This document shows, in pieces, positions 3,636 to 62,457 of a stretch of 64,000 nt of DNA. The stretch is from contig OZ024741.1 in NCBI GenBank assembly GCA_964016885.1, positions 29,326,001-29,390,000 on the forward strand, read 5' to 3'. The stretch's first letter is position 1. Each line of letters opens with the position of its first letter. The position numbers and the translations under genes were made by a program. The notes below the pieces were generated by a model, which was not told where the DNA came from, did not search any database, and saw only the letters and a program-made list of their open reading frames with translations. The stretch comes from Eledone cirrhosa. Taxonomy: Eukaryota.

Positions 3636-3639
3636 ATAT

Positions 3640-4092
3640 ATATAAGTATGTATGTACACGTACATACATATTTGTATACAGACGTACAGTAGTATGTATA
3701 TATATACATACATGCACACATATATAAATGCACGTATCGTTTTACCGAACATTTATTATAATGCTCGGTTTGTTTGTTTGTAAACAAACAAACAGCCCGA
3801 ATTACACCGTACAGTGTTTAGGCAACCACGTCACCTTTTTGTTCAACACTGACACAGGAAAGATGTACTAGTTTCAAGCTTATTAGCTATCGTCAGCATC
3901 GTAGACATTCCTGCCAGATGGTTGAACGTCTGAAAGTATATAATTTCCTTATGCATATTAACGGCTGAGCAGCCTAATTTGCATATCGAGTGCGCTCAGT
4001 CGGTCGGGCGCACCGAAAACGATAAATGGAATAGAATGAAGTAAGTGCCGTACTAAGAGTGAGAATGAAATTTCGTTTCTTTCTATTCCATA
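3640..4092 (-). mobile_element. Retrozyme-like non-autonomous element, family B
   Basis: About 450-bp non-coding unit in (TA)n with a short terminal inversion (4041-4090) and a minimal HHR. Copies at 25820, 28700 and 39972. Confidence 0.8.
3862..3900 (-). ncRNA. Minimal type I hammerhead ribozyme (family B)
   Basis: Minus strand reads GATG CTGACGA tAGCTaataAGCTt GAAA CTAG TA CATC: stem I GATG/CATC, palindromic CTAG in place of stem III. Confidence 0.85.
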
Positions 4093-4104
4093 TATATATA
4101 TACA

Positions 4105-5392: not shown

Positions 5393-8110
5393 CATACATA
5401 TATACATACACACATACATACACATACACATACACACACATATACACACACACACACATACATTAATAACAATAATAATAATAATAATAATAATATGTGA
5501 CCCAGGTCTCGCAGGCATAAAGAAGACAAGAGAGTACACATGCCCTGTACACCTTTACCTTTGTCCTCCTGCATATGTCTCGCCGACCCCAGAGTCGCCT
5601 TTCTAGCTTTCCGAAAGCATCACTTGCTTTCCTAATCCTAAGTGAGATTTCACCGTCAAGGTTGCCGTATCGATTGACAGGTAGACAAACTGATCAACCA
5701 CTCCAAGTCGTTTGCCATACACATAGATGTTTGGTTCAGTGTACTGCTTACTAGGGGCAGGTTGGTACATGACGACGGTTTTCTTGAGACTGACAGTCAA
5801 ACCCAGGGCAGTGCAAGCGTCAGAAAATGCATTCAAAATGTGCTGCATATCACTCTCTGTGTGCGCTACAAGATCGCAATCATCTGCATACAAGAGGTCT
5901 CTTATGATTGATGTAAATACTTTTGTCTTCGCAGCAAAGCGCCTGATGTTAAATTTGCTGCCTGAGGTTCGATATCGGATGTAAACACCATGCTCGCAAT
6001 TCCTGAATGCAATACAGAAAACCATTGCAAAGTATATGGCAAACAGGGTCGGTGTTGGAATATCCCCCTGTTTCACTCCATTTTTTACTGAGATAGGCTC
6101 CGACATGTTACCTCCGACATTAACCCAAGCCTTCATGTCGTCATGTAAAGACCTAACTAAAGCAAGGAACTTATCAGGGCAACCAAGTTTCTGGAGAACC
6201 TTCCATAATGCCTCTCTGTTGACAGTATCGAAAGCCTTTGTCAGATCGACAAAAACCTGATACAGATCCAAGCCTTGTGCAATGCACTTCTCCTGGAGCT
6301 GTCTAGCTGAGAAGATCATATCAGTAGTGTCGCGTCCAGCACGAAAACCAGATTGACTTTCAGGAAGAACACAATCTGCAATGTGTGTCAGCAGACGGTC
6401 CAGAAGCACCCTACATAAAACTTTCCCTACGACAGAAAGCAATGATATACCTCTGTAGTTCCCACAATCATTCCTGTTACCCTTTCCATTGTACAAGACC
6501 ACCATTACTGCATCTCTCCAGTCATCAGGTACGGATTCATATCCTTCCAAACAAAGAGTGCAGATGTTGCAGGAGTCTCTCACCACTATATTGTAGGAGC
6601 TCAGCATGTATGCCATCCATACCTGGAGATCTTCCACTGTTCAGCTTCGAAATAGCCACTGCAACCTCCACAAGCGTCGGAGGTTCTGCGAGAGCTACTT
6701 TCAAAGGAATTTCTGGAATGAGATTGAGGAAATCTTCACTGACGACAGACGGCTGATTCAAAAGATCATCAAAGTGCTCTCACAACCTTCGTAGAATTCC
6801 CTGTGAGTCACGAAGAAGTTCTTTGCCATCGTTGCTGCGAAGCGGTGTCACCAGAAAAGAAGACGGTCCATAAACCTCACGCAAGAGATTGTACAACAGC
6901 TTTGTGTTATTGGAATCAGACGCAGTTTGTATCTCACCAGCCTTCTCACTCCACCACTGATCCTTCATCTGAGAAAGACTCCGCCTAACACGTGAGTTTA
7001 CATCCCTGAGTTCCTCATGCAACGTATTCCTCTCCTGTGGTTTTGCCGTCAAGTAGCGTGACAGAGCACGCCTCTTATCAGCCAACAAGTCTTCTATATG
7101 TACATCCTTCTCATCAAACCAGTCCTGATGTTTTCTCTGCACCAATCCCAGAACACGCCTGCCTGCATCATAAACCGACTTTTTAAGGGTCGACCAATCC
7201 TCACCAAGATCTGCAGCCTGCATCTCTTCTTCCAATGTCCTCTTCACATTTTTATCCTTAAGACGAGCAGCATTCAATCTTTTGGGCAGGGCAACACCAG
7301 GAGCCCGGATTTTACGTTTGGTGATTAGTTTCACTTTTGCGCGTACCAGGCGGTGGTCCGTCCAGCACTCAGCTCCACGAAGAACACGAACGCACTGCAC
7401 ATCCTGTCTGTCACGCATCCTGACTAGGACGTAGTCCAAAAGATGCCATTCCTTAGATGCAGGATGCATCCATGTGGTCTTGAATTTGTTCTTTTGTTGG
7501 AACATGGTGTTGGTAACACACAGATCCAGCTCCTCACACATCTGCAGCAGGAGCATACCATTGCTGTTACACTTTCCCACCCCATGCCTTCCGATTACAT
7601 TCCGTGTGTTAAAATCCCTACCCACTCTAGCATTAAAGTCACCAAGCACGATGACTTTGTCTGCCTGAGGGATATTTCTTAGAACACCTTTCAACGCATG
7701 GTAAAAGGACACTTTTCCTCATTGACAGAACTCATAGTTGGAGTATACACACTCACCAGGGTAGCATATCTTCCCTTGTCCAGCGGAACTCTCATGGACA
7801 TAAGACGCTCACTATTAATAATTATTAATGCACTCGTGCAATGCCTGTGCGTGACGAATATTTTTAAAGTGAGGAAAGACTGTGCACAGAGCCAATCCCA
7901 CTCTCTGAGCGACAGTAGCTATAACCCGAAACGAAGAAAAGATTAACATCATCGGTAACTACGGAGCCGCAGGTTTTATATCGGTGTTAACCCAGTTTCC
8001 TGAGATGCCTTCTCCTAGAAGAATGCCCTGACAAGGGTTAGGGGTTCTTCACTCCCAGTGGTTTAACTGCGCGATAGGGCATCCAGCCCGATTATTTCTA
8101 TGTCCCCGCG
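5230..8110 (-). mobile_element. RTE-clade LINE, internally deleted copy
   Basis: ORFs 6780-7712 (APE: LGDFNARVG, LDYVLV, TDHRLV) and 5603-6637 (RT: NYRGISLL, FVDLTKAFD, GVKQGD, LYADD). Near-identical to 44825-49320 but missing the equivalents of ~45125-45630 and ~47975-48865. Confidence 0.95.
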
Positions 8111-8384
8111 CGCAAAAAAAAAACAAAAAAAACTCACTTATTGACACTTATACGTACGACATACACACACACGCATACATATGCGCGCACACAGCAACAC
8201 ATACATACAAACAAACACACACACACGCTACTCTACTCACTTACACACACATATATATATATATTACCGTCATTACTGATACAAGATTACAAGATTATGT
8301 CAACTGTTGACTTTCAAGAGTTTGTATAGTTGAAGCCGATCGTATTACAGTCCAGTATTATTATAATTGCTTTACAGCATAGAG

Positions 8385-8520
8385 TTATGGCTTTCCACGC
8401 TCTGAGCTTAAATCCTGCCGAGATCAACCTTGTCCTTCATCCCCACGGAGTCAACAAAAGAGAGTACCAGTGATGCGGTGGTCCAGTCGCTGGATCCGTG
8501 CCAAAAGCAGGAAAATTATT
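8385..8520 (+). mobile_element. Older S1-related SINE remnant
   Basis: CTGAGCTTAAATCCTGCCGAGATCAACCTTGTCCTTCATCCCCACGGAGTC...GTGCCAAAAGCAG. Reverse complement of 44408-44555. Confidence 0.75.
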
Positions 8521-8807
8521 ATTAAAGTTGTTTTCTTAAGGCCCGGTCGCTGGTGATGGTGATGGCGGCGGCGGTGGCGGCGGTGGTGGCAGTTGATGTT
8601 GTTGTGTGCGTGTGTGTTTTGTTATTTTGAGTTTTTTTTTTTTTCATACATACATACATACATGCATACATACATACATGCATACATACATACATACATG
8701 CATACATACATACATACATACATACATACATACATACATACATACATGCATACATACATACATACATACATGCATACATACATACATACATACATACATA
8801 CACATAG

Positions 8808-11769: not shown

Positions 11770-13490
11770 AGAGCAAATATTTATTAAAATAACAGATTAA
11801 AGTTTAAGCAAAGAATCGCTGCTTTCACCCTTAACAGGATCTTCTGAAACTAACAAAGTCAATCTGTAAACGCAGAAGTGGATATTTCAAGAAACGTTGA
11901 AACCGGAGGAAGACAGGAAGACGATACTTTGGTTCGTGGAAACGTTCCCTCGCAAAGAACGGGAAAACACGAATATAATTGTTTCTACTTTAGGCACAAG
12001 GCCAGCAAATACCCAGTACATTACTGGTACTTTATTTTATCGACCCCGTAAGGATGAAAGGCAAAGTTAACCTCGGCGGGATTTGAACGAATATAATACG
12101 TCATTAATAAGAGCGGTGAAAAACAATTACGCGCAAAGACAGAACCACGTTTATGGTATAAAAGAGGTCGTAGACTAATGTTCTCTTAGGTGGTTCATAG
12201 AGACGTTCTCTGGCAATGAACGAAAAAAAACGAAGATAATACGTCATATGTGTAACGTGGAGAACAATTGCACGCAAAGACAAAACCACGTAAATGGTAT
12301 AGCAGAAGTCGTAGACTAAAATTCTAACTAGGAGACCGAATGAATCTCCGCTTCAGAGTTAAGAATAAAGTAAATAAATACAATACAGAGGTAACAGAAA
12401 TTAAATAAATACATACCCGCATACAAATACGTACATACACAAGCATACGCGAAAACACTTACCATATGGTATACAAAACCACGCACATATAAATATGTGT
12501 GTGTGTGTGTGTGTGTGTGTATACAAATAAATAAATAATTAAATAAACGTATATAAATAAATAAATACGTATATAACAAGCGCACACACATACCTACATG
12601 TAAATACACAAATGTTCGGAGATGTAAGTCAACCAAAACATGAAGTACACATATACACACACCCTACATACGTACGAACCTGCATACTCACACAGACGCA
12701 AAACTCCCGTATACACATAACCAAACCATATGTACCAGAATATATAAAAATTATACGCCATAACATATACAATCAAATATACGTACGAGAAAGTATACGT
12801 ACCTTGACAAAACAAACAGGTAATATATACTTACCTATGCAAATAACTAATGGTATAAATAAAACATATACTTAGCTACCACATCAAGACGTAAAATATC
12901 CACGTATAGATCGTACTATCCGTTAGGGTATAACGTGGGGCTGTAATACAGGAAAGTTTTGTGCAATTTATGTTTACAAGCCGAAATTGCCTCAGATTTT
13001 TTGTTTAAGATCTGGTCTGTGGTGTAGAGTATTTCCAGGGCCTCAGCGGCGCAGACGTTACAAGGTCTTTTATTTCCGTTATACGATCTAGCCCTAGCTA
13101 GGATCTCTCAGTGTAACTTATATTGGGTGTGGTTGTTTTTTAGACTCCAGATATAAGCTGAAAGTGACGTCATATTCCTTTTTAGCGGGTAACGAAAAGA
13201 ATGGGTATGCATATAAAGACGCTGCTTGAATCTATTGGCGGTTAACCCTATGTAGGCCCTACGGGACGTGGGTGTTTCAACCTTTCATTTGTAGACAATG
13301 TTACTAGAGAGGCATTTCCCGGAAAGGGGGCAATCAACCCTATTCCTACAATTACAGTTATTACTAACTACAGGGTTGCACGTGTTCCTATACGGCTAGG
13401 TAGTTTAGCTAAATTTGAAGCTGTGATCTTATGTGCAAGGTTAGGAGTCGTAGAGTAAGAAATTTTAATAGATATACTATTAAATACTAT
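11770..13490 (-). mobile_element. 5'-truncated Penelope-like element (Hydra-clade-like), GIY-YIG remnant plus 3' region
   Basis: Manual minus-strand translation of ~13360-13020 (with stops and a frameshift): CNCRNRVDCP.SGKCLSSNIVYK...AYIGLTANRFKQRLYMH...SLSAYIWSLK...CNVCAAE. The 3' region is shared with 52595-53320. Short 5' inversion (13423-13490 vs 13513-13561). Confidence 0.85.
11980..12087 (-). mobile_element. 5'-truncated S1 SINE inserted into the PLE 3' region
   Basis: TSD ACGAATATAAT on both sides. The empty site is visible in the paralogous copy near 53115-53135. Confidence 0.9.
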
Positions 13491-13561
13491 TAAATACTAT
13501 TAAATAGAAATACTATTAAAATTTCTTACTCTACGACTCTTAGCCTTGCACATAAAATCAC

Positions 13562-13607
13562 AACCGTCTATGCATTTCAGGCTTAACTGGCCTTCATCAG
13601 GAGGTCC
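13562..13607 (-). ncRNA. Minimal type I hammerhead ribozyme (1-nt deletion in stem I)
   Basis: Minus strand reads ACC-TC CTGATGA AGGCcagttaaGCCT GAAA TGCA TA GACGGT. Confidence 0.8.
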
Positions 13608-13865
13608 CTCCCACCGCTTGCGACTGCTGGACTAGAAGACAGGCGAGAATATATACTTTTCTCGTCTGTGTAAATGAGGTGATTAATCTCATTTGCATAT
13701 GAAGCTGCATACGTTGCTCAACTTACAATAAAAAAGAAAAAGGATTTCGCTTCAAGCATAGCTTTATACAATATGCAAATGAGATTAATCACCTCATGTA
13801 CACAGACGAGAAAAGTATATATTCTCGCCTGTCTTCTAGTCCAGCAGTCGCAAGCGGTGGGAGGG

Positions 13866-13909
13866 ACCGTCCTGACGAAGGCCAGTTAAGCCTGAAATGC
13901 ATAGACGGT
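13866..13909 (+). ncRNA. Minimal type I hammerhead ribozyme, intact
   Basis: ACCGTC CTGACGA AGGCcagttaaGCCT GAAA TGCA TA GACGGT: 6-bp stem I, 4-bp stem II, palindromic TGCA loop III. Predicted cleavage after 13903. Confidence 0.92.
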
Positions 13910-14056
13910 TGTCCCCCCTTGCTTCTGCTGGACATTACCAGAGGGCGTTAGCCCCCCGGTGTTTGCATAGCCACGGCTTCCTAAAACCGTATTTCTTTAG
14001 AGATATAAAATATTTATACATAATGTATAAAGCTATGCTTGAAGTGAAATCCTATT

Positions 14057-14102
<46 letters not shown>

Positions 14103-14104
14103 GT

Positions 14105-14199
14105 GTGTCAGATGGTAGCTTCCATAGGCGGTATGCCGGTTGAGCACTCTATGCTCTTACAGAGCAGAGTATGATATAATATAAAACGAAAAATCAGTG
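14105..14199 (-). mobile_element. Probable DNA-transposon terminus (CACTG end)
   Basis: Homologous in reverse to 33444-33545. The homology stops at CACTG/CAGTG in both copies. Confidence 0.45.
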
Positions 14200-14439
14200 A
14201 TGCATCTGAACTCAATTTATTGTGTGTTACAATTTTTTCGCCGGCGTATATATGTAGATATGACGTGTCTTATGTGCTCATCTGTTACTTCTATTTTTAT
14301 GAAGTATTATTAAAGCAACAAGTGAAAACTTATCTATCTGCAAGCCGGAAACTCTCTGATTAAAGCGTTTCTGCCTCAATTTTATTTATTCAACTAGGTA
14401 AAAAAACTTGCTGCGACATGTTTTAACAAGAACAATGTA

Positions 14440-16100
14440 AAAATGACATTTAAAAACAATTTTCTTCAAACATTTCTCGAAAATGTTTTGCAATATTTAT
14501 TTTTTTAAATCTCATGAAGATATTTTCAAAAACATTTCTCGAAATTTCATATCAAATATTTAAGAAAACTTGTCTCAATTGTTTTTGAAAATTCTACTCA
14601 AAATTTTCCAAAAACTTTTTCTCTAAATTATTAAAAATATTTTTTACAACATATTTTAATTTTTAAAAACATTTTTCTAATATTTTACAGAAAGTTTTCT
14701 CAAACATATTTGACAAAATAAATTATTTTCAAATATTTCCTTTTTTTAATAAGATTTAAAATATTTCCTAAAATTGTTTGAAAAAAATCATCATCAAAAC
14801 TTTCTTAAAAACATTTCTTAAAATCTTCTAAAAGTTTCCCTCAAAATTTTCTTTAAAACTGTTCGCACAATATTTAAAATCTGCCTCCACCCCACTGCCC
14901 CCCCCCCTCCCGAAAAAAATTAAAATTTTCTAAAAAATGTTTCTCGAAAGTAGTTTATCCCCAATTCTTTCTTGAAAATTTTCGGAAAATGTTTTCGAAA
15001 ACATTTCACGGAAAATTCTCCGAATTTCTCAGAAATTATCAGCAATATTATTTTCGAAATTATTTCAAAAATTCTACTCACAATGTTCCCAAAACTTTCA
15101 CAAAAGGAAATTTTTGAAGAATTTTGAGGAAAATTTCAAATAATATGATAATTTTCAGGAAACTTTGTAAATTTAGAAAAAGAATTGGAGTGTTTCATAA
15201 AATTTTGAGAAAATTTTATGGAAAAGTTTAAATATTTTAACTAAAAATATTTGAGAAATTTTTTAGAAAACTTTTTGAAAAACTCTGAAGAAAGTTTTGA
15301 TGAAGTTCTTTGCAAAACTTTGAGCTTTCATCATCAAAACTTTCTTAAAAACATTTCTTAAAATCTTCTAAAAGTTTCCCTCAAAATTTTCTTTAAAACT
15401 GTTCGCACATAATTTAAAATCTGCCTCCACCCCACTGCATCCCCCCCCCCGAAAAAATTAAAATTTTCTAAAAAATGTTTCTCGAAAGTAGTTTACCCCC
15501 AATTCTTTCTTGAAAATTTTCGGAAAATGTTTTCGAAAACATTTCACGGAAAATTCTCCGAATTTTTCAGAAATTATCAGCAATATTATTTTCAAAATTA
15601 TTTCAAAAATTCTACTCACAATGTTCCCAAAACTTTCACAAAAGGAAATTTTTGAAGAATTTTGAGGAAAATTTCAAATAATATGATAATTTTCAGGAAA
15701 CTTTGTAAATTAGAAAAAGATTTGGAGTGTTTCATAAAATTTTGAGAAAATTTTATGGAAAAGTTTAAATATTTTAACTAAAAATATTTGAGAAATTTTT
15801 TAGAAAACTTTTTGTAAAACTCTGAAGAAAGTTTTGATGAAGTTCTTTGCAAAACTTCGAGCTTTTGAGAATATTTTGATAAATGCTTTTTTTCAAAAAA
15901 TATTTGCATAACTTACTTTTGCATAACATGAACAATCGAACTACCCATATTTCCCCAATAATTTCCTTCAAAAGATTTTCAAATATTTGCTTTAAAATCT
16001 ATTTTCTAAGATTTGATTTACTCAAAAATATTCCTGAAAAGTTTTGAAAAAATTTCTTTAAAATGTTTCTCAACATTTTCTATGAGATTCTATCAAGATG
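14440..16100. repeat. A/T-tract low-complexity block containing a 540-bp tandem duplication
   Basis: TCATCATCAAAACTTTCTTAAAAACATTTCTTAAAATC starts at 14788 and at 15328. The two units are near-identical to ~15865. Confidence 0.9.
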
Positions 16101-17139: not shown

Positions 17140-18217
17140 TGTATAGTGTTTGATGTGTGTTCGCGTTTGGGTGACTGTGTTTTGGTTATTGTATTCTATC
17201 TTAGTTTACTAGTGTGTGTTTATATGTGTTTGTTGTTATTGTGCTTCTGTATATATTTATTTATTTATTTATATTTCTCTTAGGTCAGTATTGTTTGTTT
17301 GGGTGTTGTTATTCCATTCATTTTTTCTGTTTAGCTTTGGCCTTCTAAGTTCAATTTCACTGGCCTCTATGATTTGCCTATCTGCTGGGTCATTTCTATG
17401 TTTAGATATTATTTTAATTTCAATGTTGTCTATGTTACCGTCATGTTGTTCTCTGGCGTGTTCATATAGTACTGAACCGTTTTTTCTTCCTTTTAGTTCC
17501 TCCCCGGGTTGGTCTATCCTTTCACCTACGCTACGAGCTGTCTGGCCTATGTATGTTGTTGTCATGTTTCTGCAAGTACGCTCTGTACATCTTATGCTAT
17601 AGACTACGTTTATAGTTTTACAGTTTATCCGGGGGTTTACTTTACATATAATACATTTCCTATTAGTACAGTGGGTTTTCTTAAAAGGGTATGTTTTGCT
17701 GATCAGGGATTTTATGGTTCCTGGCTTTTCTACCATCTTAATCTTTAGGTGGGTCTCTCTCGGGGCCTTTCTAAACGGGTTAGCTAATTTCCCTCGAGGA
17801 GTAGCATCCCCGAACATGACCCTCTGGTATCTCTGGTTGTCGTACCATGAGGTGGCTTTCCCTATCTTATGTTTAGTCTTATCTAAGCTATTCCATGATT
17901 TGCTCCTGTATAATGGGCAAATTCCTTTCATGTCCAGTTCTATGAGGGTCTTATACTTCTCCGTGGCTCCTTCGTATACTCTGACTCTGTCTCTTTGGTT
18001 GTAGCCAGAGAACTGCATGCGGTTGATGAAGTGTTGGATGTGTCTTTCCATTTCTGTTGGGTCGCACATGCGGGACTCGTTCTTCATCACTCGTACCAAG
18101 TCTGCGATCAGAATATTAAACTTAGCACTACTGGACATTGTTGAGTGTTTGAGTATTAGGTATTTGGAGGCCATGGGTTTAACGTAGTGTGAGTGGAGAA
18201 TTTGAGGTCTCTCGTCT

Positions 18218-18220
<3 letters not shown>
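17140..18220 (-). mobile_element. 5'-truncated Penelope-like element (Neptune/Nematis-like): RT thumb + GIY-YIG
   Basis: ORF 17269-18333: HYVKPMASK, RMQFSGY, CTNRKCIIC linker, NVVYSIRC, YIGQTARS, EASEI, LNRKNEW. The 5' end joins (CA)n. Confidence 0.9.
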
Positions 18221-18291
<71 letters not shown>

Positions 18292-18457
18292 TCCTGGGTT
18301 CAATCGCGGGTAACCAGTTAGTAAAGTAATCAATACATTACCAGAGTTTAAGCATCAAGTTTAATATAGAAATGTCTTCTACAGGACTGGAACTAGTTCA
18401 TTCAAACGAAATCCTCATTCTCATCATCATCATCATATATATATATTTATATATATA

Positions 18458-23827: not shown

Positions 23828-23970
23828 ACTGATTTCTACAGCTGAGTAAACTGTAGCAACTCAATATAAAGTGTCTTGCTCAAGGACACAATGCATCACC
23901 TGGTTCGAGAATCGAACTCACAACGTCACGATTGTAAGCCCAATACTCTAACCACGAAGCAATACGCCTT
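23828..23970 (-). mobile_element. CORE-like SINE (S2)
   Basis: Homologous in reverse to 8808-8948. Minus-strand B box GTTCGATTC. Confidence 0.75.
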
Positions 23971-24009
23971 CACACACACGCACAAAGACACACATACACA
24001 CACACACGT

Positions 24010-25501
<1,492 letters not shown>

Positions 25502-25751: not shown

Positions 25752-25819
25752 GTATAGTAATAATAATAAATGTGAAGACTAAAATCTTTATCTAAATAAA
25801 TAAATAATTATATACATAT

Positions 25820-27025
25820 ATATATAAGTATGTACACGTACATTCAAATATGTATACAGACGTACAGTAGTATGTATTTATATATAGATACATGCACACA
25901 TATATATATGTACGTATGGATTCACCGAACATGTATTATAATGCTCGGTGTGTTTGTAAACAAACATCCCGTATTAAGCCGTAGTGTCTAGCAACCATCG
26001 TTGCTCGTTTGTTCAATACTGACAAAGGAACGCTGTACTAGTTTCAAGCTTATTAGCTATCATAAGCAACGTATACCTTCCTGCCAGATTTTTGAACGTC
26101 TGAAAGTATATACTTACCTTATGCATATTAACGGCTGAGTAGCCCAATTTGCATATCGAGTGGGTTAATCGGCCGGGTGCACCGAAAACGATTAATGGAA
26201 AAAATGAAACGAAATTTCATTTCCCACTCTTAGTACGGCTGTTACTTAAATATAAGTATGTATACGTACATACTTATATGTATACAGACGTACAGTAGTA
26301 TGTATATATATATATATACATACATGCACACATATATATATATGTACGTATGGATTCACCGAACATTTATTATAATGCTAGACACTACGGCTTAATACAG
26401 GATGTTTGTTTACAAACACACCGAGCATTATAATAAATGTTCGGTGAATCCATACCTACATATATATGTGTGCATGTATATATATATACATACTACTGTA
26501 CGTCTGTATACATATATGTATGTACGTGTACATACTTATATTTAAGAAACAGCCGTACTAAGAGTGGGAAATGAAATTTCGTTTAATTTTTTCCGTTTAT
26601 CGTTTTCGGTGCACCCGGCCGATTAACCTACTCGATATGCAAATTGGGCTACTCAGCCGTTAATATGCATAAGGTAAGTATATACTTTCAGACGTTCAAC
26701 AATCTGGCAGGAAGGTATACGTTGCTGACGATAGCTAATAAGGTTGAAACTAGTACAGCGTTCCTTTGTCAGTGTTGAACAAACGAGCAACGATAGTTGC
26801 TAGACACTACAGCTTAATACGGGATGTTTGTTTACAAACACACCGAGCATTATAATAAATGTTCGGTGAATCTATACGTACATATATATGTGTGCATGTA
26901 TGTATATATATATTCATACTACTGTACGTCTGTATACATATATGTATGTACGTCTACATACTTATATTTAAGTAACACCCGTACTAAGAGTGGGAAATGA
27001 AATTTCGTTTCATTTTTTCCGTTTA
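25820..27025. mobile_element. Family B partial-tandem plus inverted array
   Basis: Direct period ~428 bp (25825 vs 26253) and inversion point at ~26378. HHRs at 26031-26071 (-, core mutated to CTTATGA) and 26720-26760 (+, CGTTG CTGACGA...GAAA CTAG TA CAGCG). Confidence 0.9.
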
Positions 27026-27202
27026 TATATATATATATACAGTAATAATAATAAATGTGAAGACTAAAATCTTTATCTAAATAAATAAATATATACATAT
27101 ATATACACACATTACATTTATATTTGTATGTATATATATATGTGTGTATGTGTGTGTGAATATATATACATATGTATATATATGTATATGTGTATGTGTA
27201 TA

Positions 27203-28699: not shown

Positions 28700-28750
28700 T
28701 AGGTATGTATGTATACGTACATACATATATGTATAAAGACGTACAGTAGC

Positions 28751-28801
<51 letters not shown>

Positions 28802-29431
28802 CAGGCACACATATATATATGTACCTATCAGTTTAGCGAACATTTATTATAACGTTCGCTTTGTTCGTTTGTAAAGAAACGGACAGCCTGATTTATGCCG
28901 TACGGTGTTAAGGCAACCACGTCACCTTTTTGTTCAACACTGACACACGAACGATGTACTAGTTTCAAGCTTGTTAGCTATCGTCAGCACCGTATACCCT
29001 TCTGCCACATGGTTGAACGTTCGAAAGTATATACTTTCCTTATGAAAATTAACGGCTGAGCAGCCTAATTTGCATATCGAGTGAGTTCAGTCGGCCAGGC
29101 GCACCGAAAACGATAAAATGGAATAGAATGAAATGAAATTTCATTTCTCACTCTTATTACGGCACTTACTTAAATGTAAGTATATATGTATACGTACATA
29201 CATATATGTATACAGACGTACAGTAGCATGTATATATATATATACATACAGGCACACATATATATATGTACGTATCAGTTTAGCGAACATTTATTATAAC
29301 GTTCGCTTTGTTCGTTTGTAAACAAACGGACAGCCTGATTTATGCCGTACGGTGTTAAGGCAAACACGTCACCTTTTTGTAAGTAAGTGCCGTACTAAGA
29401 GTGAGAAATGAAATTTTATTTCATTCTATTC

Positions 29432-29435
<4 letters not shown>
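28700..29435 (-). mobile_element. Family B partial tandem (~1.4 units) plus short inversion
   Basis: Period ~477 bp including a (TA)n expansion. Intact HHR at 28951-28993 (-): ACGGTG CTGACGA tAGCTaacaAGCTt GAAA CTAG TA CATCGT. Confidence 0.9.
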
Positions 29436-29473
<38 letters not shown>

Positions 29474-33344: not shown

Positions 33345-33445
33345 AGAGGCCTAACATCAGTCCAGACAACATTTGAGTGTCGCATCATATCTCTCCGACA
33401 ACATCTACGAACCTCGAAGCGTAGGAGCCCGTTTCTCGAGCACCA
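33345..33445 (+). mobile_element. Dong/R4 internal fragment interrupted by a CACTG-ended element
   Basis: GAGGCCTAACATCAGTCCAGAC...CAACATCTACGAACCTCGAAGCGTAGGAGC matches the reverse complement of 50436-50503. The 5' junction is in (CATA)n. Confidence 0.75.
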
Positions 33446-33818
33446 CTGATTCTCCGTTTCTTATGTGATATTATACTCTGCTCTGTAAAAGCATCGAGTG
33501 CGCAAACGGCCTACCGTATACGGACGCTTTAAGCATCCCACACCAATTATATATTTATATATATATATATGTATATATGTTTATATATATATGTTTATAT
33601 ATATATATACAAATATTCAGATATGTACAAACATATTTTCCATGTTTCGACAATGAAGTCATAGAGCCAATCCGTATCACACAGAAGTAGTTACATAGAT
33701 ACATATGTTGAATAAACTATTATAGAAACCAATGTAGGCGCACTCTCACATACTCACAGTACATCATAAGTCAAATACACAGACAGAGCTGCATTCCTAC
33801 ATATAGAATACACACACA

Positions 33819-36557: not shown

Positions 36558-39500
36558 ACTGTGAACAACAATTATAATTGAGTGGCTGCTATTTGCAGTA
36601 TAGCAATATAAGGTTGCACTTACCAATGAAACGGTCGTAAATACCTGGATAAAATCCTTCTCTTAATGTTTACCTGTGTTTTCTCTTTTATACTTTATAC
36701 TCCAAGATTAAACGGAATTCTTACAAACTTGTGGAGTTACCCCTAACCGTACGTTGAAACCATCCATGAAACTGGCTTTCTTAACCACGAACTGGATTAC
36801 AATAAGCAATTTTCTGCTTCCCTAACTACAGGCTCCTTATCGGTCGAGCAACCACCTAAACATACGGTACTACTATGGAAAAGCATTACATAGGTATGTC
36901 CCTAAAGAACATTCCTATACCTTTGAGAAAGGATTATACCCTCGGGATGATACAGCGAACAAACGACTTTATACGCAGAGTTAGATGGAAAACTTTCCAT
37001 TTCGACAAAGGACGTAATGGTTGCACCGTGGAATACAACAAGGAAACATACGGCTTCAAATCGTGTAAGAACCCATCTACCAACCCTCAACTTGATGCCT
37101 TTGAACAGGACTTACTGAAGATCATTATAAATATCAAATTCAAAAAGCGGAGGAATAATAAACTCCAGAATGACATAAATACATTCCTAAAAAAGCTGTG
37201 AACCACCAATGGAAATATTGTCAAAGCGGACAAAACATCAAATGTGTATACGATGGATGTTAATACATACAATAGTTTCATACGGAAGGAATTACATAGG
37301 AAATACAAAAAAATAATGAGGCGGCACTGATAAACATCAACAACGAGGCACACAATATAGTCAAACACATAGGAACAGACGACAGAACGGAGCCACTTAG
37401 CCCATGTACCCCCACATTTAATCTCAAGGACCACAAGGTAAATTTTGATTATAACCTCACAATTAGACTTATATGCCCGTCCAAATCGGACATCGGGAAA
37501 ATTAGTAAAAATATATTAGACAGAGTGATAGCACAAATGAAGAATAAACTAGTGATTAAACTATGGGTTAACCCTACCGAAACAATTAAGTGGTTTAACA
37601 ATATAGCTAACAAAGAAGTATCTAAATTTATACAATTTGACATTAACGACTATTACTCCGCTATATCCCCAACACCTTGGATAAAGCCTTAGCATTCGCC
37701 AAAGCCAATTCTGACATAACAGACGACGAGATAAAAATTATATTAGCTGCTAGGAAAACAATAATTAAATTTGAAAACGCCTATTGGGAACGTAAGGATA
37801 GATTCAATAAGTTTGACATCACGATGGGGGCTAACGACTCGGCTCAAGTCACAGATTTAGTATGTATTTACATAGCCCATAGTTTACAAAGTGAGTTTAG
37901 CGACCTTCACGGTGGAATCTACAGAGACGATGCCCTTCTCCTAGTTAAGAACCTAAATAACCAGAGCATAGAAAGACTCCGTAAGAATATTAGAAAGACT
38001 CTCGGAAACTAGGCCTTAGCATAACGTATGAGTATAGCACTAAAACAGTTAACTTTCTAGACGCGACGCTTAACCTAAATTTCACAAGATTAATGAAAAC
38101 TTAGCATACATCAACTGTAACTCAAACCACCCACTAACCATGATTAAATCCATTCCACGCAGCATATCCCTTAGGATCTCCCGCCTCTCGTCTAACCGAC
38201 AAATCTTCGAAGAACATGCAGAATACTACAATACCGCATTAGACAAGGCAGGCCACTTAGATAGAGTAGAATATATAGATGAAAGCCTCCGTAAAGCGCA
38301 CACGAACACGCATAACACAAACTCCAGAAACACACGCACACACGCACTTACGCATAGAACTACAAAGTATACGGTAAATAGAAATACAACATCGAAATCA
38401 AACAAGTCACGCAGTAGAAAATATATTTGGTATAACCCCATATTTAACACCTCTATTAGTACTAACCTACCCTCTACCTTCTTTAGAATAATAAATAAGC
38501 ACTTTCCAGATTCACATAGATACAGCAAAATCCTTAACACTAAATCTATTAGACTATCTTACTCCACGGCACCAAATATAGAGGCACACATTAAGATGCT
38601 TAACGCTAAAAAGATACATAACAACACCAGAACACAAATTTACAACAATAACAATCCAATCACCATTGAACACAACAGAATATCTAATACACAACCACCC
38701 ACTAATAGGCAAACAAAACGTAACACACTTGTACAGGCACCGCAGCCCACCAATAATGTCAAAGTTGCCCATGACAATAATTGTAACTCCCACCTACCTG
38801 AAACCTGTCTATTACATAATGAATGTATGCAGTCTAACCTGGTTTACCAATGCACAGTGGAGTCAGACAAACAGAAATGGTATTACATCGGAGCGACTGG
38901 GAATACATTTAAAGCCCGTTGGTATACACACCGTTACGCAATGAAACATTCCCAACATCGTTATGTAACTACCCTTGCAAACAAGACCTGGCAACTGAGG
39001 GAAAGTAACCATCAATACACCCTGAAGTGGAAAAAATTATTGAACGCGCCCCCATATCGGAGTGGTATGAGAAGCTGTCAATTATGCGACCTTGAGCTGT
39101 TCCACATCTTGAGTTCGAAGAATAAGTTACTCAACAATAAAATCGAAAGATCAATTTATTGTAACCATAGACTCAAAGAGAAGTTTTCGCACTACAAGTG
39201 CAAATCGAACCCTTAAACTCTTACTACCAACTGACAAACTGCATATACTTAGACTTTATACCTTCTTGTTGTATTTAAATCCTTTTAAGTACCCACAAAA
39301 ACAAATACCTATATTCCCCCTTCTCCTTCATTCCTCTTCTATTTCTTCGTTTTCTTCCTTCCTTCCCTCCCCTTCTTGGCTATCTTTTCTTTTCTTCTTT
39401 CTCCCCCTTCTTTGCTTTTATTTTTGTCATTATTATTTTTATCTTTATTTTTTTTATTTATATTTATCCCTTTATATCTCCCCCCCCCCCTCTCTCTATC

Positions 39501-39928: not shown

Positions 39929-39971
<43 letters not shown>

Positions 39972-39975
<4 letters not shown>

Positions 39976-40892
39976 GGAAAAAATGAAACGAAATTTCATT
40001 TCCCACTCTTAGTACGGCTATTACTTAAATATAAGTATGTATACGTACATGCATATATGTATACAGACGTACAGCAGTATGTATATATATATATATATAT
40101 ATATATACATACATGCACACATATATATATGTACGCATGGATTCACCGAACATTTATTATAATGCTCGGCGTGTCTGTAAACAAACATCCCGTATTAAGC
40201 CATTGCTCGTTTTGTTCAACACTAACAAAGGAACGCTCTACTAGTTTCAAGCTTATTAGCTATCGTCAGCAACGTATACCTTCCTGTCAGATGGTTGAAC
40301 GTCTGAAAGTATAAACTTTCCTTATGCACATTAACGGCTGAACAGCCTAATTTGCATATCGAGTGAGTTAATCGGCCGGGGTACCGAAAACGATAAATGG
40401 AAACGATAAATAGCCGTACTAAGAGTGAGAAATGAAATTTCGTTTCATTTTTTCCATTTATCGTTTTCGGTGCGCCTGGCCAATTAACTCACTCGATATG
40501 CAAATTAGGCTGCTCAGCCGTTAATATGCATAAGGAAAGTATATACTTTCAGACGCTCAATCATCTGGCAGGAAGGTATACGGTGCTGACGATAGCTAAT
40601 AAGCTTGAAACTAGTACATCGTTCCTTTGTCAGTTTTGAACAAAAGGGCAACGATGGTTGCTAAACACTACGGCTTAATTCGGGATGTTTGTTTACAAAC
40701 AAACCGAGCATTATAATAAATGTTCGGTAAATTCATACGTACATATATATATATATGTGTGCATGTATGTATATATATACATACTACTGTACGTCTGTAT
40801 ACATATATGTATGTACGTATACATACTTATATTTAAGTAACAGCCATACTAAGAGTCAGAAATGAAATTTTGTTTCATTTTTTTCCATTTAT
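39972..40892. mobile_element. Family B inverted dimer
   Basis: 39972-40400 is inverted against 40411-40890. HHRs at 40233-40275 (-) and 40581-40621 (+). Confidence 0.9.
40581..40621 (+). ncRNA. Minimal type I hammerhead ribozyme, intact (family B)
   Basis: CGGTG CTGACGA tAGCTaataAGCTt GAAA CTAG TA CATCG. Confidence 0.9.
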
Positions 40893-44066: not shown

Positions 44067-44407
44067 GTGTGTATATACATCACTCAGTCAAACGACCAGA
44101 TTTCAACCCCAACATCTACAACAACCAACAACACCGGCACTAATGTTTACAGCAACAACACCTTCAGAATGAACTGAAATGAACATTTACAACAACAACA
44201 ACAACAGCGGCATCAAAAGATAAAAAAAAAAAGAAGAAAGTGAAGGGAAAAAAAAAAGGAAAAAAACAACAAAAAAAACACAAAATAACAAAACACACAC
44301 ACACACACGCACACAACACAACAACAACATCAACTGCCACCACCACCACTACCGCCGCCGCCATCACCATCATAAGCGACCGGGCCTTAAGAAAACAACT
44401 TTAATAA

Positions 44408-44555
44408 TAATTTTTCTGCTTTTGGCACGGATCCAGCGACTGGACCACCGCATCACTGGTACTCTCTTTTGTTGACTCCGTGGGGATGAAAGGCAAGGTT
44501 GACCTCGGCGGGATTTGAGCTCAGAGCGTGGAGGGCCGTGACTCTATGCTGTAAA
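44408..44555 (-). mobile_element. Older S1-related SINE remnant
   Basis: GGGGATGAAAGGCAAGGTTGACCTCGGCGGGATTTGAGCTCAG. Paralog of 8385-8520. Confidence 0.75.
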
Positions 44556-44824
44556 GCAATTATAATAATACTGGACTGTAATACGATCGGCTTCAACTAT
44601 ACAAACTCTTGAAAGTCAACAGTTGACATAATCTTGTAATCTTGTATCAGTAATGACGGTAATATATATATATATATATATATGTTTGTGTGTGTGTGTA
44701 AGTAAGTAGAGTAGCGTGTGTGTGTTTGTTTGTATGTATGAGTGTTGCTGTGTGCGCGCATATATATGCGCGTGTGTGTGTCGTACGTATAAGTGTCAAT
44801 AAGTGATTTTTTTTTTTTTTTTTG

Positions 44825-47800
44825 CGCGGGGAGATAGAAATAATTGGGCTGGATGCCCGATCACGCAGTTAAACCACTGGGAGTGAAGAACCCCTAGCCC
44901 TTGTCAGGGCATTCTTCTAGGAGAAGGCATCTCAGGAAACTGGGTTAACTCCGACATAAAACCTGCGGCTCAGTAGTTACCGATGATGTTGATCTTTTCT
45001 TCTTTTCGGGTTATAGCTACTGTCGCTCAGAGAGTGGGATTGGCTCAGTGCACAGTCTTTCTTCACTTTAAAAATATTCGTCACGCACAGGCATTGCACG
45101 AGTGCATTAATAATTATTAATAGTGTACTATTATTATTATTATTATTATTATTACTATTATTATTACTTTTTATTATTTTTTTTTATTAATTCAATGATG
45201 TTCCAGAACAATATAAAAGAGATAATTGGCAATTTAGGTTCTGGAACAAAAAATATCATTGGCAATAAGGGCAGGGGACCCAGGTTATCACAGCCTGGGC
45301 CCGCTCGTCATCGTGCCATTGTAATAGAGCCAAACAAGGCATTTAGTCTTGGCTGCTGGAACGTACGGACGCTGCTTGACATGGATTCCTTGAGGCGTCC
45401 TGAACAAAGGACGGCTCTTGTTGCAAAGGAGCTTCGACGTTACAATCTTGACATCGTGGCTTTTTCTGAGACGAGGCTAGCTGGAGATGGTCTTCTTACG
45501 GAATTTTGTGGAGAATATACATTCTTCTGGAAAGGAAGAGATGAAGGAACTAGAAGAGAGGCTGGGGTAGGATTTGCTGTTAAGACTGTGCTTGTGAACA
45601 AATTAGAAGAATTCCCAGTAGGGATTAGTGAGCGTCTTATGTCCATGAGAGTTCCGCTGGACAAGGGAAGATATGCTACCCTGGTGAGTGTGTATACTCC
45701 AACTATGAGGAAAAGTGTCCTTTTACCATGCCTTGAAAGGTGTTTTAAGAAATATCCCTCAGGCAGACAAAGTCATCGTGCTTGGTGACTTTAATGCTCG
45801 AGTGGGTAGGGATTTTAACACATGGAATGTAATCAGAAAGCATGGGGTGGGAAAGTGTAACAGCAATGGTATGCTCCTGCTGCAGATGTGTCAGGAGCTG
45901 GATCTATGTGTTACCAACACCATGTTCCAACAAAAGAACAAATTCAAGACCACATGGATGCATCCTGCATCTAAGGAATGGCATCTTTTGGACTACGTCC
46001 TAGTCAGGATGCGTGACAGACAGGATGTGCAGTGTGTTCGTGTTCTTCGTGGAGCTGAGTGCTGGACGGACCACCGCCTGGTACGCGTAAAAGTGAAACT
46101 AATCACTAAACGTAAAATCCGGGCTCCTGGTGTTGCCCTGCCCAAAAGATTGAATGCTGCTCGTCTTAAGGATAAAAATGTGAAGAGGACATTGGAAGAA
46201 GAGATGCAGGCTGCAGATCTTGGTGAGGATTGGCCGACCCTTAAAAAGTCGGTTTATGACGTAGGCAGGCGTGTTCTGGGATTGGCGCAGAGGAAACATC
46301 AGGACTGGTTTGATGAGAATGATGTACATATAGAAGACTTGTTGGCTGATAAGAGGCGTGCTCTGTCACGCTACTTGACGGCAAAACCACAGGAGAGGAA
46401 TACGTTGCATGAGGAACTCAGGGATGTAAACTCACGTGTTAGGCGGAGTCTTTCTCAGATGAAGGATCAGTGGTGGAGTGAGAAGGCTGGTGAGATACAA
46501 ACTGCGTCTGATTCCAATAACACAAAGCTGTTGTACAGTCTCTTGCGTGAGGTTTATGGACCGTCTTCTTCTCTGGTGACACCGCTTCGCAGCAAGGATG
46601 GCAAAGAACTTCTTCGTGACTCACAAGGAATTCTACGAAGGTGGCGAGAACACTTTGATGATATTTTGAATCAGCCGTCTGTCGTCAGTGAAGATTTCCT
46701 CAATCTCATTCCAGAAAGTCCTGTGAAAGTAGCTCTCGCAGAACCTCCGACGCTTGTGGAGGTTGCAGTGGCTATTTCGAAGCTGAAAAGTGGAAGATAT
46801 TCAGGTATCGATGGCATACATGGCATACATGCTGAGCTCCTACAATATGGTGGTGAGACACTCCTGCATCATCTTCACTCTTTGTTTGGCAGGATATGGG
46901 CTAATAAATCCGTGCTAATGAATCCGTACCTGAGGACTGGAGAGATGCAGTAATGGTGGTCTTGTACAAGGGAAAGGATAACAGGAACGATTGTGGGAAC
47001 TACAGAGGTATATCATTGCTTTCTGTCGTAGGGAAAGTTTTATGTAGGGTGCTTCTGGACCGTCTGCTGACACACATTGCAGATTGTGTTCTTCCTGAAA
47101 GTCAATCTGGTTTTCGTGCTGGACGCGGCACTACTGATATGATCTTCTCAGCTAGACAGCTCCAGGAGAAGTGCATGGAACAAGGCTTGGATCTGTATCA
47201 GGTTTTTGTCGATCTGACAAAAGCTTTCGATACTGTTAACACAGATGCATTATCGAAGGTTCTCCAGAAACTTGGTTGCCCTGATAAGTTCCTTGCTTTA
47301 GTTAGGTCTTTCCATGACGACATGAAGGCTTGGGTTAATGTCGGGGGTAACATGTCGGAGCCTATCTCAGTAAAAAATGGAGTGAAACAGGGGTATATTC
47401 CAGCACCGACCCTGCTTGCCATATACTTTGGAATGGTTTTTTGTATTGCATTCAGGAATTGCGAGCATGGTGTTTACATCCGATATCGAATCTCAGGCAG
47501 CATATTTAACATCAGGCGCTTTGCTGCGAAGACAAAAGTATTTACATCAATCATAAGAGACCTCTTGTATGCAGATGATTGCGATCTTGTAGCGCACACA
47601 GAGAGTGATATGCAGCACATTTTGAATACATTTTCTGACGCTTGCACTGCCCTAGGTCTGACTGTCAGTCTCAAGAAAACCGTCGTCATGTACCAACCTG
47701 CCCCTGGTAAGCAGTACACTGAACCAAACATCTACGTGTATGGCAAACGACTTGGAGTGGTTGATCAGTTTGTCTACCTGGGAAGCACTGTCAATCGATA

Positions 47801-48943
47801 CAGCAACCTTGACAGTGAAATCTCACTTAGGATTAGGAAAGCAAGTGATACTTTCGGAAAGCTAGAAAGGCGACTCTGGGGTCGGCGAGATATATGCAGG
47901 AGGACAAAGGTAAAGGTGTACAGGGCATGTGTGCTCTCTTGTCTTCTTTATGCCTGCGAGACCTGGGTCACATATCGAAACCACCTTAAGCAATTGGAGC
48001 GTTTCCATCAGATGTGTCTCAGACGGATCCATGGCGTTCACTGGAGGGACCACATCAGTGATATCGAGATTTTGGAAAGCTCTATGTGTGACAGTATAGA
48101 AGCTCTTGTGCTTAAGCAACGACTCCGTTGGAGTGGTCACCTTGCCAGGATGAAGGATTCTAGAATACCAAAACAACTCTTTTATGGAGAGTTGGTTAAA
48201 GGAAAACGACCGCCACATAAACCAAAAAAGAGGTATAATAGTTCCTTGAAAGCCTCTCTGAAAGACGCTAACATCTCTGCTGATACATGGGAGAATATTG
48301 CTGCTGATCGTAATAAATGGAGAAAGACTGTATATGAGGGAAAAGTTGCCTTTGAGGCATCTCGAATCGCATAAGGAGAAAGTAAAGCGGGATGTGAGGA
48401 AGGGCATTGCTGTTGCACTTCCGGACGGCGAGGGTCCTCCTATGGTGCTGACATGCAGCGTATGTGCGAGACTCTGCCTAAGCAAAGCTGGACTCGAAAG
48501 TTATCTTCGCAGTCATAAAGTAAGACCAGTGGTTGACTACCAGGCTGCTGTTGGAGATGCTACTCATCATGCTTGCCAAACATGTGGTAGAGAATGTAAA
48601 TCAGCAGGAGGGCTCAAGCGACATGCAAGAGTACACGAACTCCAACCACAGCCGACTATTCCCAGTGAATGTTTTGGTTGCCGACTCTGTGCAATACATT
48701 TTAGATCATTGGCTGGGCTAAAAAGCCACATTCGATCGCAGCGCTGTTAGTTGCTATCGTGTGTGTGTGTGTGTGTAGATATGCTTATGTGTGTGCGTGT
48801 GTGTATATATATATATGTATATGTATATTATTATTGTTGTTGTCGTTATTATTATTGTTGTTATGATTATTATTATTATTATTGTTATTAATGTATGTGT
48901 GTGTGAGTGTGTGTATATGTGTATGTATATGTATATATATATG

Positions 48944-52594: not shown

Positions 52595-53312
52595 ATGAAT
52601 GAACGAAAAAAACGAAGATAATACGTCATATGTGGAGCGTGGAGAACAATAGCACGCAAAGACAAAACCACGTAAATGGTATAGCAGAAGTCGTAGACTA
52701 AAATTTTAACTAGGAGACCGAATGAATCTCCGCTACAGAGTTAAGAACAAAGTAAATAAATACAATACAGAAGTAATAGAAATAAATAAATACATACACG
52801 CAAACAAATACGTACATACACAAGCATACGCAAAACATTTACCATAGGTGTACAAAACCACGCACATATAAATATGTGTGTGTGTTTATGCGTGTATACA
52901 AATAAATAAATAAATAATTATATAAACGTATATAAATAAATAAATAAATACGTATATAACAAGCGCGCTCCACATATGACGTATTATCTTCGTTTTTTTC
53001 GTTCATTGCCAGAGAACGTCTCTATGAACCACCTAAGAGAACATTAGTCTACGACTTCTTTTATACGTGGTTCTGTCTTTGCGCGTAATTGCTTTTCACC
53101 ACTCCTATTAATGACGTATCTTATTCGTTTTTTCCCGTTCTTTGCCAGCGAACGTTACCACGAACCAAAGTATCGTCTTCCTGTCTTCCTCCGGTTGCAA
53201 CGTTTTTTGAAATATCCAGTTCTGCGTTTACAGATTGACTTTGTTAGTTTCAGAAGATCCCGTTAAGGGTGAAAGCAGCGATTCTTTGCTTAAACTTTAA
53301 TCCGTTATTTTA

Positions 53313-53320
<8 letters not shown>
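52595..53320. mobile_element. Solo inverted PLE terminal region (family of 11770-13490)
   Basis: 52595-52965 matches 12216-12585. 52965-53320 matches the reverse complement of 11775-12262 without the SINE. Confidence 0.85.
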
Positions 53321-61947: not shown

Positions 61948-62457
61948 ATCAAGAAACTATTATTCCTATCGCAAATAACTTCTATAGATAACACTAGGTC
62001 ACTCGTTAATAATCTCTCTAATTGCAATTGCAATTGCCCTGCTAAAAATAAATGTCCTCTCAACAACCATTGTCTTGATAAAAACTTAATTTACGAATGT
62101 AAAGTTATAACTGACACCAATTCCTTCACCTATTTTGGCTCCACTTCCACCTCCTTTAAAGCTCGTCTTTATAATCATCATTCGTCTTTTAAATATAAAC
62201 TTAAAAGAACCAACACGGCTCTCTCAGAACTCATATGGTCCTTGAAAGACAAAAATATTAAATATAACATCTCTTGGAAGAAGGTTTCCTCTGCTTCCAC
62301 ATACTTGAACAGTTCTCTATCCAAGACTTGCAATCTCTGTCTGAATGAAAAATTTACCATTATATCTAATTTAGATTCTATAATAAATAGACGCACTGAC
62401 TTGTTTTCTATCTGCTTGCATAAATTCCACAGAACTTTCCATAAAGTATACAGCTAA
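61948..62457 (+). pseudogene. GIY-YIG endonuclease domain of a 5'-truncated Hydra-clade-like PLE
   Basis: Open frame without an ATG: CNCPAKNKCPLNNHCLDKNLIYECKV...TYFGSTSTSFKARLYNH...TALSELIWSLK...CNLCLNEK...CLH. Confidence 0.85.

Follow-up and report, generated by a model that had tools for sequence, protein, structure and literature searches.

Organization of the locus

The region from 13560 to 14062 of the window, i.e., of the whole 64-kb stretch of DNA analyzed here, is occupied by a head-to-head pair of arms, in which we distinguished the blocks A, HHR (hammerhead), D, B, and C, named in the sense of the element. The window itself is animal DNA that is rich in microsatellites and contains fragments of LINE-like and Penelope-like ORFs. 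The parts of the locus are the following.

13771 to 14062, plus strand: plus arm, 292 nt, with the order A-HHR-D-B; 5' truncated at the inversion point, its 3' end running into (TA)n
13771 to 13864, plus strand: block A, containing the 5' strand (13839 to 13864) of the long stem that bears the hammerhead
13865 to 13910, plus strand: intact type I hammerhead, by motif scan and folding
13911 to 14023, plus strand: block D, the 3' strand of the long stem plus two small hairpins
14024 to 14062, plus strand: block B, the 39-nt overlap by which the unit is closed, with a small hairpin ahead of a T-run
14063 to 14102, no strand: (TA)n microsatellite, the likely insertion target
13771 to 13775, no strand: microhomology, 5 nt common to both arms at the inversion junction, by arm alignment
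13732 to 13770, minus strand: B', 39 nt, the 5' start of the minus arm
13701 to 13731, minus strand: block C, 31 nt, occurring once in the window and connecting B to A
13607 to 13700, minus strand: A', the inverted copy of A (99% over 98 nt)
13560 to 13606, minus strand: damaged hammerhead copy with one stem I base missing; the arm ends 9 nt past the cut site

Read from 13770 down to 13560, the minus arm has the order B'-C-A'-HHR'. The four anchors proposed in the sequence-only reading, namely, the start of the plus arm at 13771, its B block at 14024, the B' copy at 13770 and, 70 nt later, the A' copy at 13700, were all found in place. In the alignment of the two arms, mismatches occur at 3 of 142 positions over A and the hammerhead and at 4 of 48 positions between B and B'; the match score of B with B' (76) exceeds the maximum obtained in 1,000 dinucleotide shuffles (26), so the match is not due to chance. 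As had been proposed, a repeat unit can be rebuilt from this single fold-back insertion: the series A-HHR-D-B-C measures 253 + 70 = 323 nt by coordinates, with a GC content of 43.7%, and the period of the family is about 324, block C in the window being about 1 nt short. Since the family reads T at 14023 (54,779 of 55,030 depth in the run contigs mapped on the unit), both arms share the 5 nt from 13771 to 13775 at the inversion point.

No other copy of the 323-nt element was found in the 64-kb window, and no target site duplication could be discerned at the locus, whose right flank is (TA)n. The minus arm stops neither at B nor at (TA)n but against a hairpin, 9 nt after the cut site, and the left end of the locus has likely been rearranged. 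The hairpin adjoining the left side of the element (13422 to 13562) is imperfect, 141 nt long, with 87% complementary arms and a loop of short tandem repeats; it overlaps the end of the minus arm by 3 nt, has no other copy in the window and, as far as tested, lies outside the 323-nt unit. On the right side, a repeat of about 89 nt occurs just beyond the element (14117 to 14203) and again at 33440 to 33528, the two copies being 81% alike and each lying beside (TA)n. Further on, there is an AT-rich tandem duplication (14788 to 15865; period, 537 to 540 nt; 95 to 97% identical).

Hammerhead motif and RNA folding

The core of the plus-arm hammerhead is complete, with CUGA-C-GA at 13872, GAAA at 13894, and an AUA triplet, and the predicted cut falls between 13903 and 13904. 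Stem I has 7 bp, stem II has 4 bp with a 7-nt loop and an A-U pair at its base, and stem III has 1 bp with a palindromic tetraloop. The minus-arm copy, which lacks one base of stem I, did not fold as a hammerhead, in agreement with the earlier statement that the unit contains one intact ribozyme.

A strict hammerhead motif occurs 4 times in the 64-kb window and in none of 20 shuffles. With a relaxed scan, we obtained 7 matches, against 0 to 1 in 30 shuffles, and 5 of the 7 belong to two retrozyme-like families. Two lone hammerhead-like motifs with variant cores, at 59057 and 9947, both on the minus strand, also came from the relaxed scan and may be due to chance. Rfam gave no gathering-level match in the 64-kb window. 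At an E value of ≤10, 22 matches were obtained, all below the gathering score and tracking hairpins and the (TA)n tract; between 13200 and 14300, they are generic hairpin matches only. The hammerhead was thus identified by the motif scan and by folding, the Rfam models having given no score.

When two copies of the hammerhead are cofolded, the structure of minimum energy is that of a dimer whose stem III is intermolecular and 6 bp long, and a dimer is also the predicted working form of the plus-arm hammerhead. Activity may be reduced by the AUA triplet and by the A-U pair at the stem II base; in one preprint, 8 of 9 Xenopus retrozyme dimers gave no cleavage in vitro (bioRxiv 10.64898/2026.07.22.740005). 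The copy in the window carries no more than one intact hammerhead on either strand, and the prediction is that no monomer can be released from it.

The circular fold of the unit has an energy of -101.1 kcal/mol (z = -5.7 against 200 dinucleotide shuffles) and is 60% paired, with the hammerhead helices free. In the circular ensemble, stems I and II are formed at probabilities of 0.62 to 1.0, and the outer stem, pairing 13839 to 13846 with 13926 to 13933, has a probability of 1.0. The hammerhead variants among those listed, which are unphased, fall on N7, in loop 2, or where pairing is kept (13876, 13887, and 13906), and two further variants among those listed (13881 and 13891) would be compensatory if phased.

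The repeat family in public sequencing runs

Of the nine listed public runs, four were mapped on 13701 to 14060, at a likeness of ≥85%. In run X1, 3,502 of 17,142,217 contigs match the unit and cover the plus arm over its full length; their summed depth over 13773 to 14036 is 6e4 to 1.6e5, against 7 to 17 for single contigs. Run X7 contributed 1,479 matching reads at the same likeness (≥85%). The 323- to 324-nt family likely comprises thousands of copies, the depth not being a true copy count. In a metagenome scan, a 21-mer of the element had no match; a 16-mer gave 119 loci, with a best alignment of 50 nt at 78%, which we took as chance.

The head-to-tail junction, which had previously only been deduced, could be read within individual contigs of two public runs, each belonging to a different study. 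In particular, the order D-B-C-A is found in one X1 contig, where 35 C-like letters lie between 14059 and 13771 (depth, 16), and in record 9 of run X4, one of the two matching contigs of that run, which consists of 13975 to 14060, 34 C-like letters, and 13771 to 13797, i.e., 86 nt of D-B, the C-like stretch, and 27 nt of A. Both contigs lead to a period of 324 if the remainder equals the window. Run X4, with its two matching contigs at low depth, may represent trace DNA of the same animal rather than a second species. Furthermore, C-like loose ends precede 13771 in at least 40 X1 contigs, the B-C-A joint occurs in at least 23 raw X7 reads with 6 starts, and B is directly joined to C-A in the window, X1, X5 (a run not counted as RNA), and X7. 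TA-rich loose ends follow B in at least 25 X1 contigs (median length, 15 nt; agreement, 0.64). The contigs over the repeat are short, and an array of two complete hammerhead units was not found among the listed pieces. A separate observation in run X7 is that at least 107 reads, likely from one locus, join the start of B, at 13773, to a foreign sequence, which we take to resemble a Helitron 3' end (a hairpin followed by CTAG).

From the table of joints, called at 85% likeness with short sides of 28 to 51 nt, we read 6 head-to-head joints, all in X1, among the 15 listed for X1, X5, and X7: 13758/13827, 13763/14028, 13772/13825, 13821/13917, 13841/13882, and 13862/13921. In three of the six, one arm starts in the first 13 nt of B. 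A further fold-back is represented by X4 record 10. Two other joints, 13773/13955 and 13957/13743, were excluded as fold-backs, being same-sense D-to-B joins through the B' copy. Taken together, the joints are suggestive of folding back as a trait of the family.

Inverted chimeras are a known artifact, and none of the listed pieces of the four public runs spans the inversion junction at 13770/13771; the fold-back could then be a chimera of assembly or library preparation, and the repeat family alone would be real. We consider this explanation very improbable, given that 7 of the 190 positions compared are different between the arms, each arm having its own departures from the family majority, that the 70-nt spacer is true family sequence, and that fold-backs recur both as joints in short-read contigs and at four loci of a second family in the window (see below).

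Coding potential

The longest Met-initiated frame on a concatemer of the unit has 59 amino acids and starts from an ATG within the hammerhead; no ORF of 100 amino acids overlaps 13200 to 14300. The 55-codon part of this frame runs from the ATG through D and B; none of 9 candidates was a homologue of it at an E value of ≤10, which is weak evidence. In X1, a 1-nt deletion at 13913, accounting for 49,683 of 112,755 depth (44%), shifts this frame, the only open one. The unit is non-coding, and the sequence-only reading was correct in recognizing no coding region.

The same frame enters into a rival explanation, in which the locus would be the remnant, consisting of pLTR plus tail, of a coding Penelope-like element (PLE); the 323-nt unit would have no life of its own, and either B would recur inside the coding element or deletion would account for the junction contigs, as infrequent products. 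An inverted 5'-truncated copy, a tail, and a (TA)n target are indeed traits of PLEs, and the hammerhead ATG opens its 55 codons through D and B much as the ORF of the anole element is reported to start at the hammerhead, with the tail within the ORF start (PMC11167929). In Schistosoma, close pairs of opposite-strand hammerheads have been attributed to truncated PLEs (PMC4209133), and D-B-C-A is seen in only 2 contigs among those listed. Against this, B runs directly into C-A in the window and in X1, X5, and X7, D-B-C-A is continuous in two runs, the loose ends before A among those listed for X1 are C-like, and the frame is shifted in 44% of the depth and found, as weak evidence, no protein match among the 9 candidates. 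On balance, we regard a coding-element remnant as unlikely.

Penelope-like footprint and a second hammerhead family

PLE insertions are described as often carrying an inverted 5'-truncated copy at the 5' end and a tail of 30 to 40 bp, with a bias toward microsatellites (PMC8557442); two sites of internal priming delimit the tail, and cutting and extension by the protein involve both strands of the DNA (PMC11167929). At the locus examined here, an inverted 5'-truncated partner arm adjoins the 5' end of the plus arm, and an AT-rich microsatellite target is present at the right end, (TA)n at 14063 to 14102, and absent at the left end. The end of B is also the end of the plus arm, which there meets (TA)n, and the start of B opens the minus arm; the 39 nt between these two points have the size of a tail, a role that block B may play. 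Copies of the 323-nt family ending at the start of B were not found among the listed pieces, while a second family in the window shows both ends.

3637 to 4095, 25819 to 27026, 28704 to 29436, and 39970 to 40892: 430-nt hammerhead repeat family with its own hammerhead, unrelated to the 323-nt unit

This family is folded back at all four loci, and three of its arms are well over one unit long (567, about 650, and 679 nt). The eight arm ends are all confined to two sites separated by about 55 nt, three at unit positions 421 to 427 and five at unit positions 51 to 53, each next to (TA)n. The first site is where one arm begins at three of the four loci, and at two of these three it is also where the partner arm ends. 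Such a geometry is what would be expected from two priming events on one RNA. The locus at 39970 to 40892 has the same plan as that at 13560 to 14062, and stem II of the family's hammerhead has a U-U mismatch at its base. The Penelope footprint is seen more cleanly in the 430-nt family than at 13560 to 14062.

Moreover, a similar small hairpin precedes the terminal T-run in both families. The corresponding tail pattern matched 5 sites, each of them at a 3' end of one of the two families; having been written from those sites, it represents a lead and not a test. We consider the footprint of the two families to be structural support for the proposed partnership between retrozymes and Penelope-like elements. 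As a separate observation, a third fold-back family (11777 to 12592 and 52598 to 53320) carries a hammerhead-like motif, at 11846 on the minus strand and at 53251 on the plus strand, with one core substitution and a longer stem III.

The footprint also bears on an explanation that dispenses with any RNA step, in which the repeat would be a satellite spread by recombination at the DNA level and the fold-back would come from template switching in DNA repair. The microhomologies of 5 nt and 3 nt at the two junctions fit repair as well, and Li et al. discuss unequal crossover as a way in which pLTR-derived units are amplified locally in tandem (bioRxiv 10.64898/2026.07.22.740005). What such recombination would leave unexplained is that an isolated copy abuts (TA)n, that arm starts recur at B, that the 430-nt family has two fixed 3' ends in 8 of 8 arms, and that the conserved hammerhead is among the deepest-covered parts of the unit in the run depth. 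We judge this origin quite improbable.

Penelope-like ORFs in the window

For the PLE-like ORF at 17269 to 18213, the best named relative is a predicted Octopus vulgaris protein, with 57% identity, which makes a host among the octopuses or other cephalopods likely. Decayed PLE-like ORF ends at 17269 to 18354 (minus strand) and 23870 to 24800 (plus strand) show a cysteine-rich linker before a GIY-YIG-like region; judged by the description in PMC8557442, their sequences look Neptune-like and suggest a candidate type of partner. In the window, no sequence link was found between the 323-nt element and the flanks of five PLE ORF regions, and the relaxed scan tied no hammerhead to a PLE ORF. Pfam returned no family at an E value of ≤0.01 for 8 PLE-like ORF fragments, whose identity as PLEs rests on homologues, one of them with PF01541. 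A second group of decayed ORFs, PLE-like by eye, lies at 36860 to 39216 (plus strand), 54455 to 56402 (minus strand), and 61948 to 62457 (plus strand); its members share about 68% DNA identity with each other, have no Pfam match, and have one homologue at 33%. The window also contains two copies of a LINE-like element, RTE-type by eye, at 5493 to 8642 and 44268 to 48500, which are about 91 to 95% identical.

Proposed origin of the locus

The reading that we prefer, with a probability of roughly three in four, is that the locus is a fold-back copy of a high-copy, 323- to 324-nt non-coding hammerhead repeat, likely an animal non-LTR retrozyme, which the reverse transcriptase/endonuclease of a PLE would have copied from an RNA longer than the unit into (TA)n. 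According to this proposal, tandem arrays elsewhere, of which stretches of more than one unit were seen, would likely be transcribed into multimers. On the basis of the folding model and of analogy with known retrozymes, pairing of neighboring hammerheads would take place through the palindromic stem III, with one cut in each unit, and the monomers may be ligated to circles. A PLE protein would then cut an AT-rich target and start cDNA synthesis internally on the RNA, where block B ends, and the other DNA end would serve as primer for a second cDNA. Head-to-head joining of these two products would have used the microhomology observed at 13771 to 13775. Later, the left arm likely lost its D-B end (about 150 nt), and both arms presumably decayed after that; the damage itself is visible at the locus.

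Since both arms extend across the cut site, a linear monomer left by cleavage could have been the template only with a jump; what was copied was either a multimer that had not been cleaved or a circle closed again by ligation. The circular or concatemeric template of the sequence-only reading holds to this extent, and a read-through transcript of a genomic tandem array explains the locus as well as a circle does. Between multimer and circle, which look the same at this locus, we lean only slightly toward the former. It has been reported that a purified Penelope-like protein, from the anole, used uncleaved RNA in vitro (PMC11167929), that circles are the main form of retrozymes in coral, mussel, and axolotl, and, in a proposal of 2014, that a circle may be copied over more than one unit.

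It is possible to hypothesize, as a more specific and rather doubtful version of the proposal, that the fold-back loci of the window record the way in which retrozymes move: a dimeric PLE protein would start cDNA synthesis at both ends of the tail on a single retrozyme RNA, circular or multimeric, the hairpin and U-run shared by the tails of the two otherwise unrelated families would act as the cis signal read by the enzyme, and the 324-nt RNA circle would be abundant. Animal retrozymes are said, in the available text of PMC7761336, to show no conserved motif pointing to their partner; if the hypothesis were true, the shared tail hairpin and U-run would be that missing motif.

Comparison with known hammerhead elements

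The metazoan non-LTR retrozymes described in PMC7229834 resemble the unit in being non-coding, 150 to 450 nt long, with a GC content below 50% and one type I hammerhead, and resemble the family in their head-to-tail arrangement and, likely, in having thousands of copies; they also form a self-paired circle with the hammerhead free, which here is a folding prediction. The same 1-bp helix III with a palindromic tetraloop is found in the axolotl HHR_Amex1, with a unit of 330 nt, which cleaves well only as a dimer (PMC7229834). Different from the present locus, no inverted partner arm, tail, or cephalopod example is described in the available text of that source. The "canonical" metazoan type I hammerhead, with 6 bp in helix I, 4 bp in helix II, 1 to 2 bp in helix III, and a palindromic loop (PMC4209133), is matched in geometry by the plus-arm motif, and this form has been tied to retrozymes (PMC7229834). 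The min-HHR of PLEs, in contrast, is described as having no loop 3, a long helix II, a short helix I, and an extra base before the G-C pair 10.1-11.1 (PMC4209133), whereas here helix II has 4 bp with an A-U base, helix I has 7 bp, and a palindromic loop 3 is present; some PLE hammerheads are reported to have a small palindromic helix III.

With PLEs, the locus shares the inverted 5'-truncated copy at the 5' end and the AT-rich or microsatellite target, and its block B has the size of their 30- to 40-nt tail (PMC8557442 and PMC11167929); internal priming downstream of the hammerhead, as in the anole element (PMC11167929), is probable. The anole protein primed at a site nonhomologous to the cut DNA (PMC11167929), whereas here the 3' end is at a T-run with TAT-like similarity to the target. 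An autonomous PLE has an RT plus GIY-YIG ORF between pLTRs; the locus has no such ORF, and B joins C-A directly. The plant LTR retrozyme differs in having type III hammerheads in LTRs, a PBS, a PPT, and a 4-bp duplication, whereas here the hammerhead is of type I and there is no LTR pair. In the features open to checking, the 323-nt element agrees with an animal non-LTR retrozyme, and it departs both from an autonomous PLE and from the LTR retrozymes of plants. The sequence-only reading, which set a retrozyme against the LTR of a coding element, named the right family but drew the contrast too sharply, because the fold-back, the tail-like segment, and the (TA)n target are Penelope-like marks and because retrozymes are argued to derive from pLTRs (bioRxiv 10.64898/2026.07.22.740005).

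A link between retrozymes and PLEs has already been proposed (PMC7229834; PMC7761336; bioRxiv 10.64898/2026.07.22.740005), and the last of these sources, by Li, Clavereau, and Pollet (2026), makes the same proposal as ours in treating vertebrate retrozymes as non-autonomous PLE derivatives. The average units given there (313 to 342 bp in insects, amphibians, and Anthozoa) are close to the unit described here, and monomers, dimers, and multimers coexist there, as they may do here. Differences concern the basis of the proposal, which in that preprint is co-occurrence and pLTR similarity and here is an insertion footprint; the classes covered, which in its available text include no mollusc; and the rule for an "active" retrozyme, i.e., two consecutive intact hammerheads, by which the locus at 13560 to 14062 is not "active" (bioRxiv 10.64898/2026.07.22.740005). 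Non-autonomous Chlamys elements such as MRC1 are alike in being non-coding PLE dependants with pLTRs and insertions of multiple copies arranged head to tail, and unlike in occurring in green algae and in mostly having no canonical hammerheads (PMC8557442).

A literature search, with subscription papers, Repbase, and several supplements largely outside its reach, found no cephalopod retrozyme, and Octopus had no match in one supplement file of PMC4209133. Priming of retrozymes at two points, for which the term "twin priming" is in use, was likewise not found in this literature, subscription papers again lying largely outside it.

As an element, the 323-nt repeat is ordinary and of a known kind, and it would add a likely cephalopod family to the known retrozymes. 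In the available literature, the borrowing of PLE enzymes by retrozymes has so far been based on co-occurrence, shared hammerheads, and pLTR similarity. The occurrence of two non-coding hammerhead families with a Penelope insertion footprint makes this partnership testable in the published in vitro Penelope assay, and the footprint points to the tail as the likely recognition signal.
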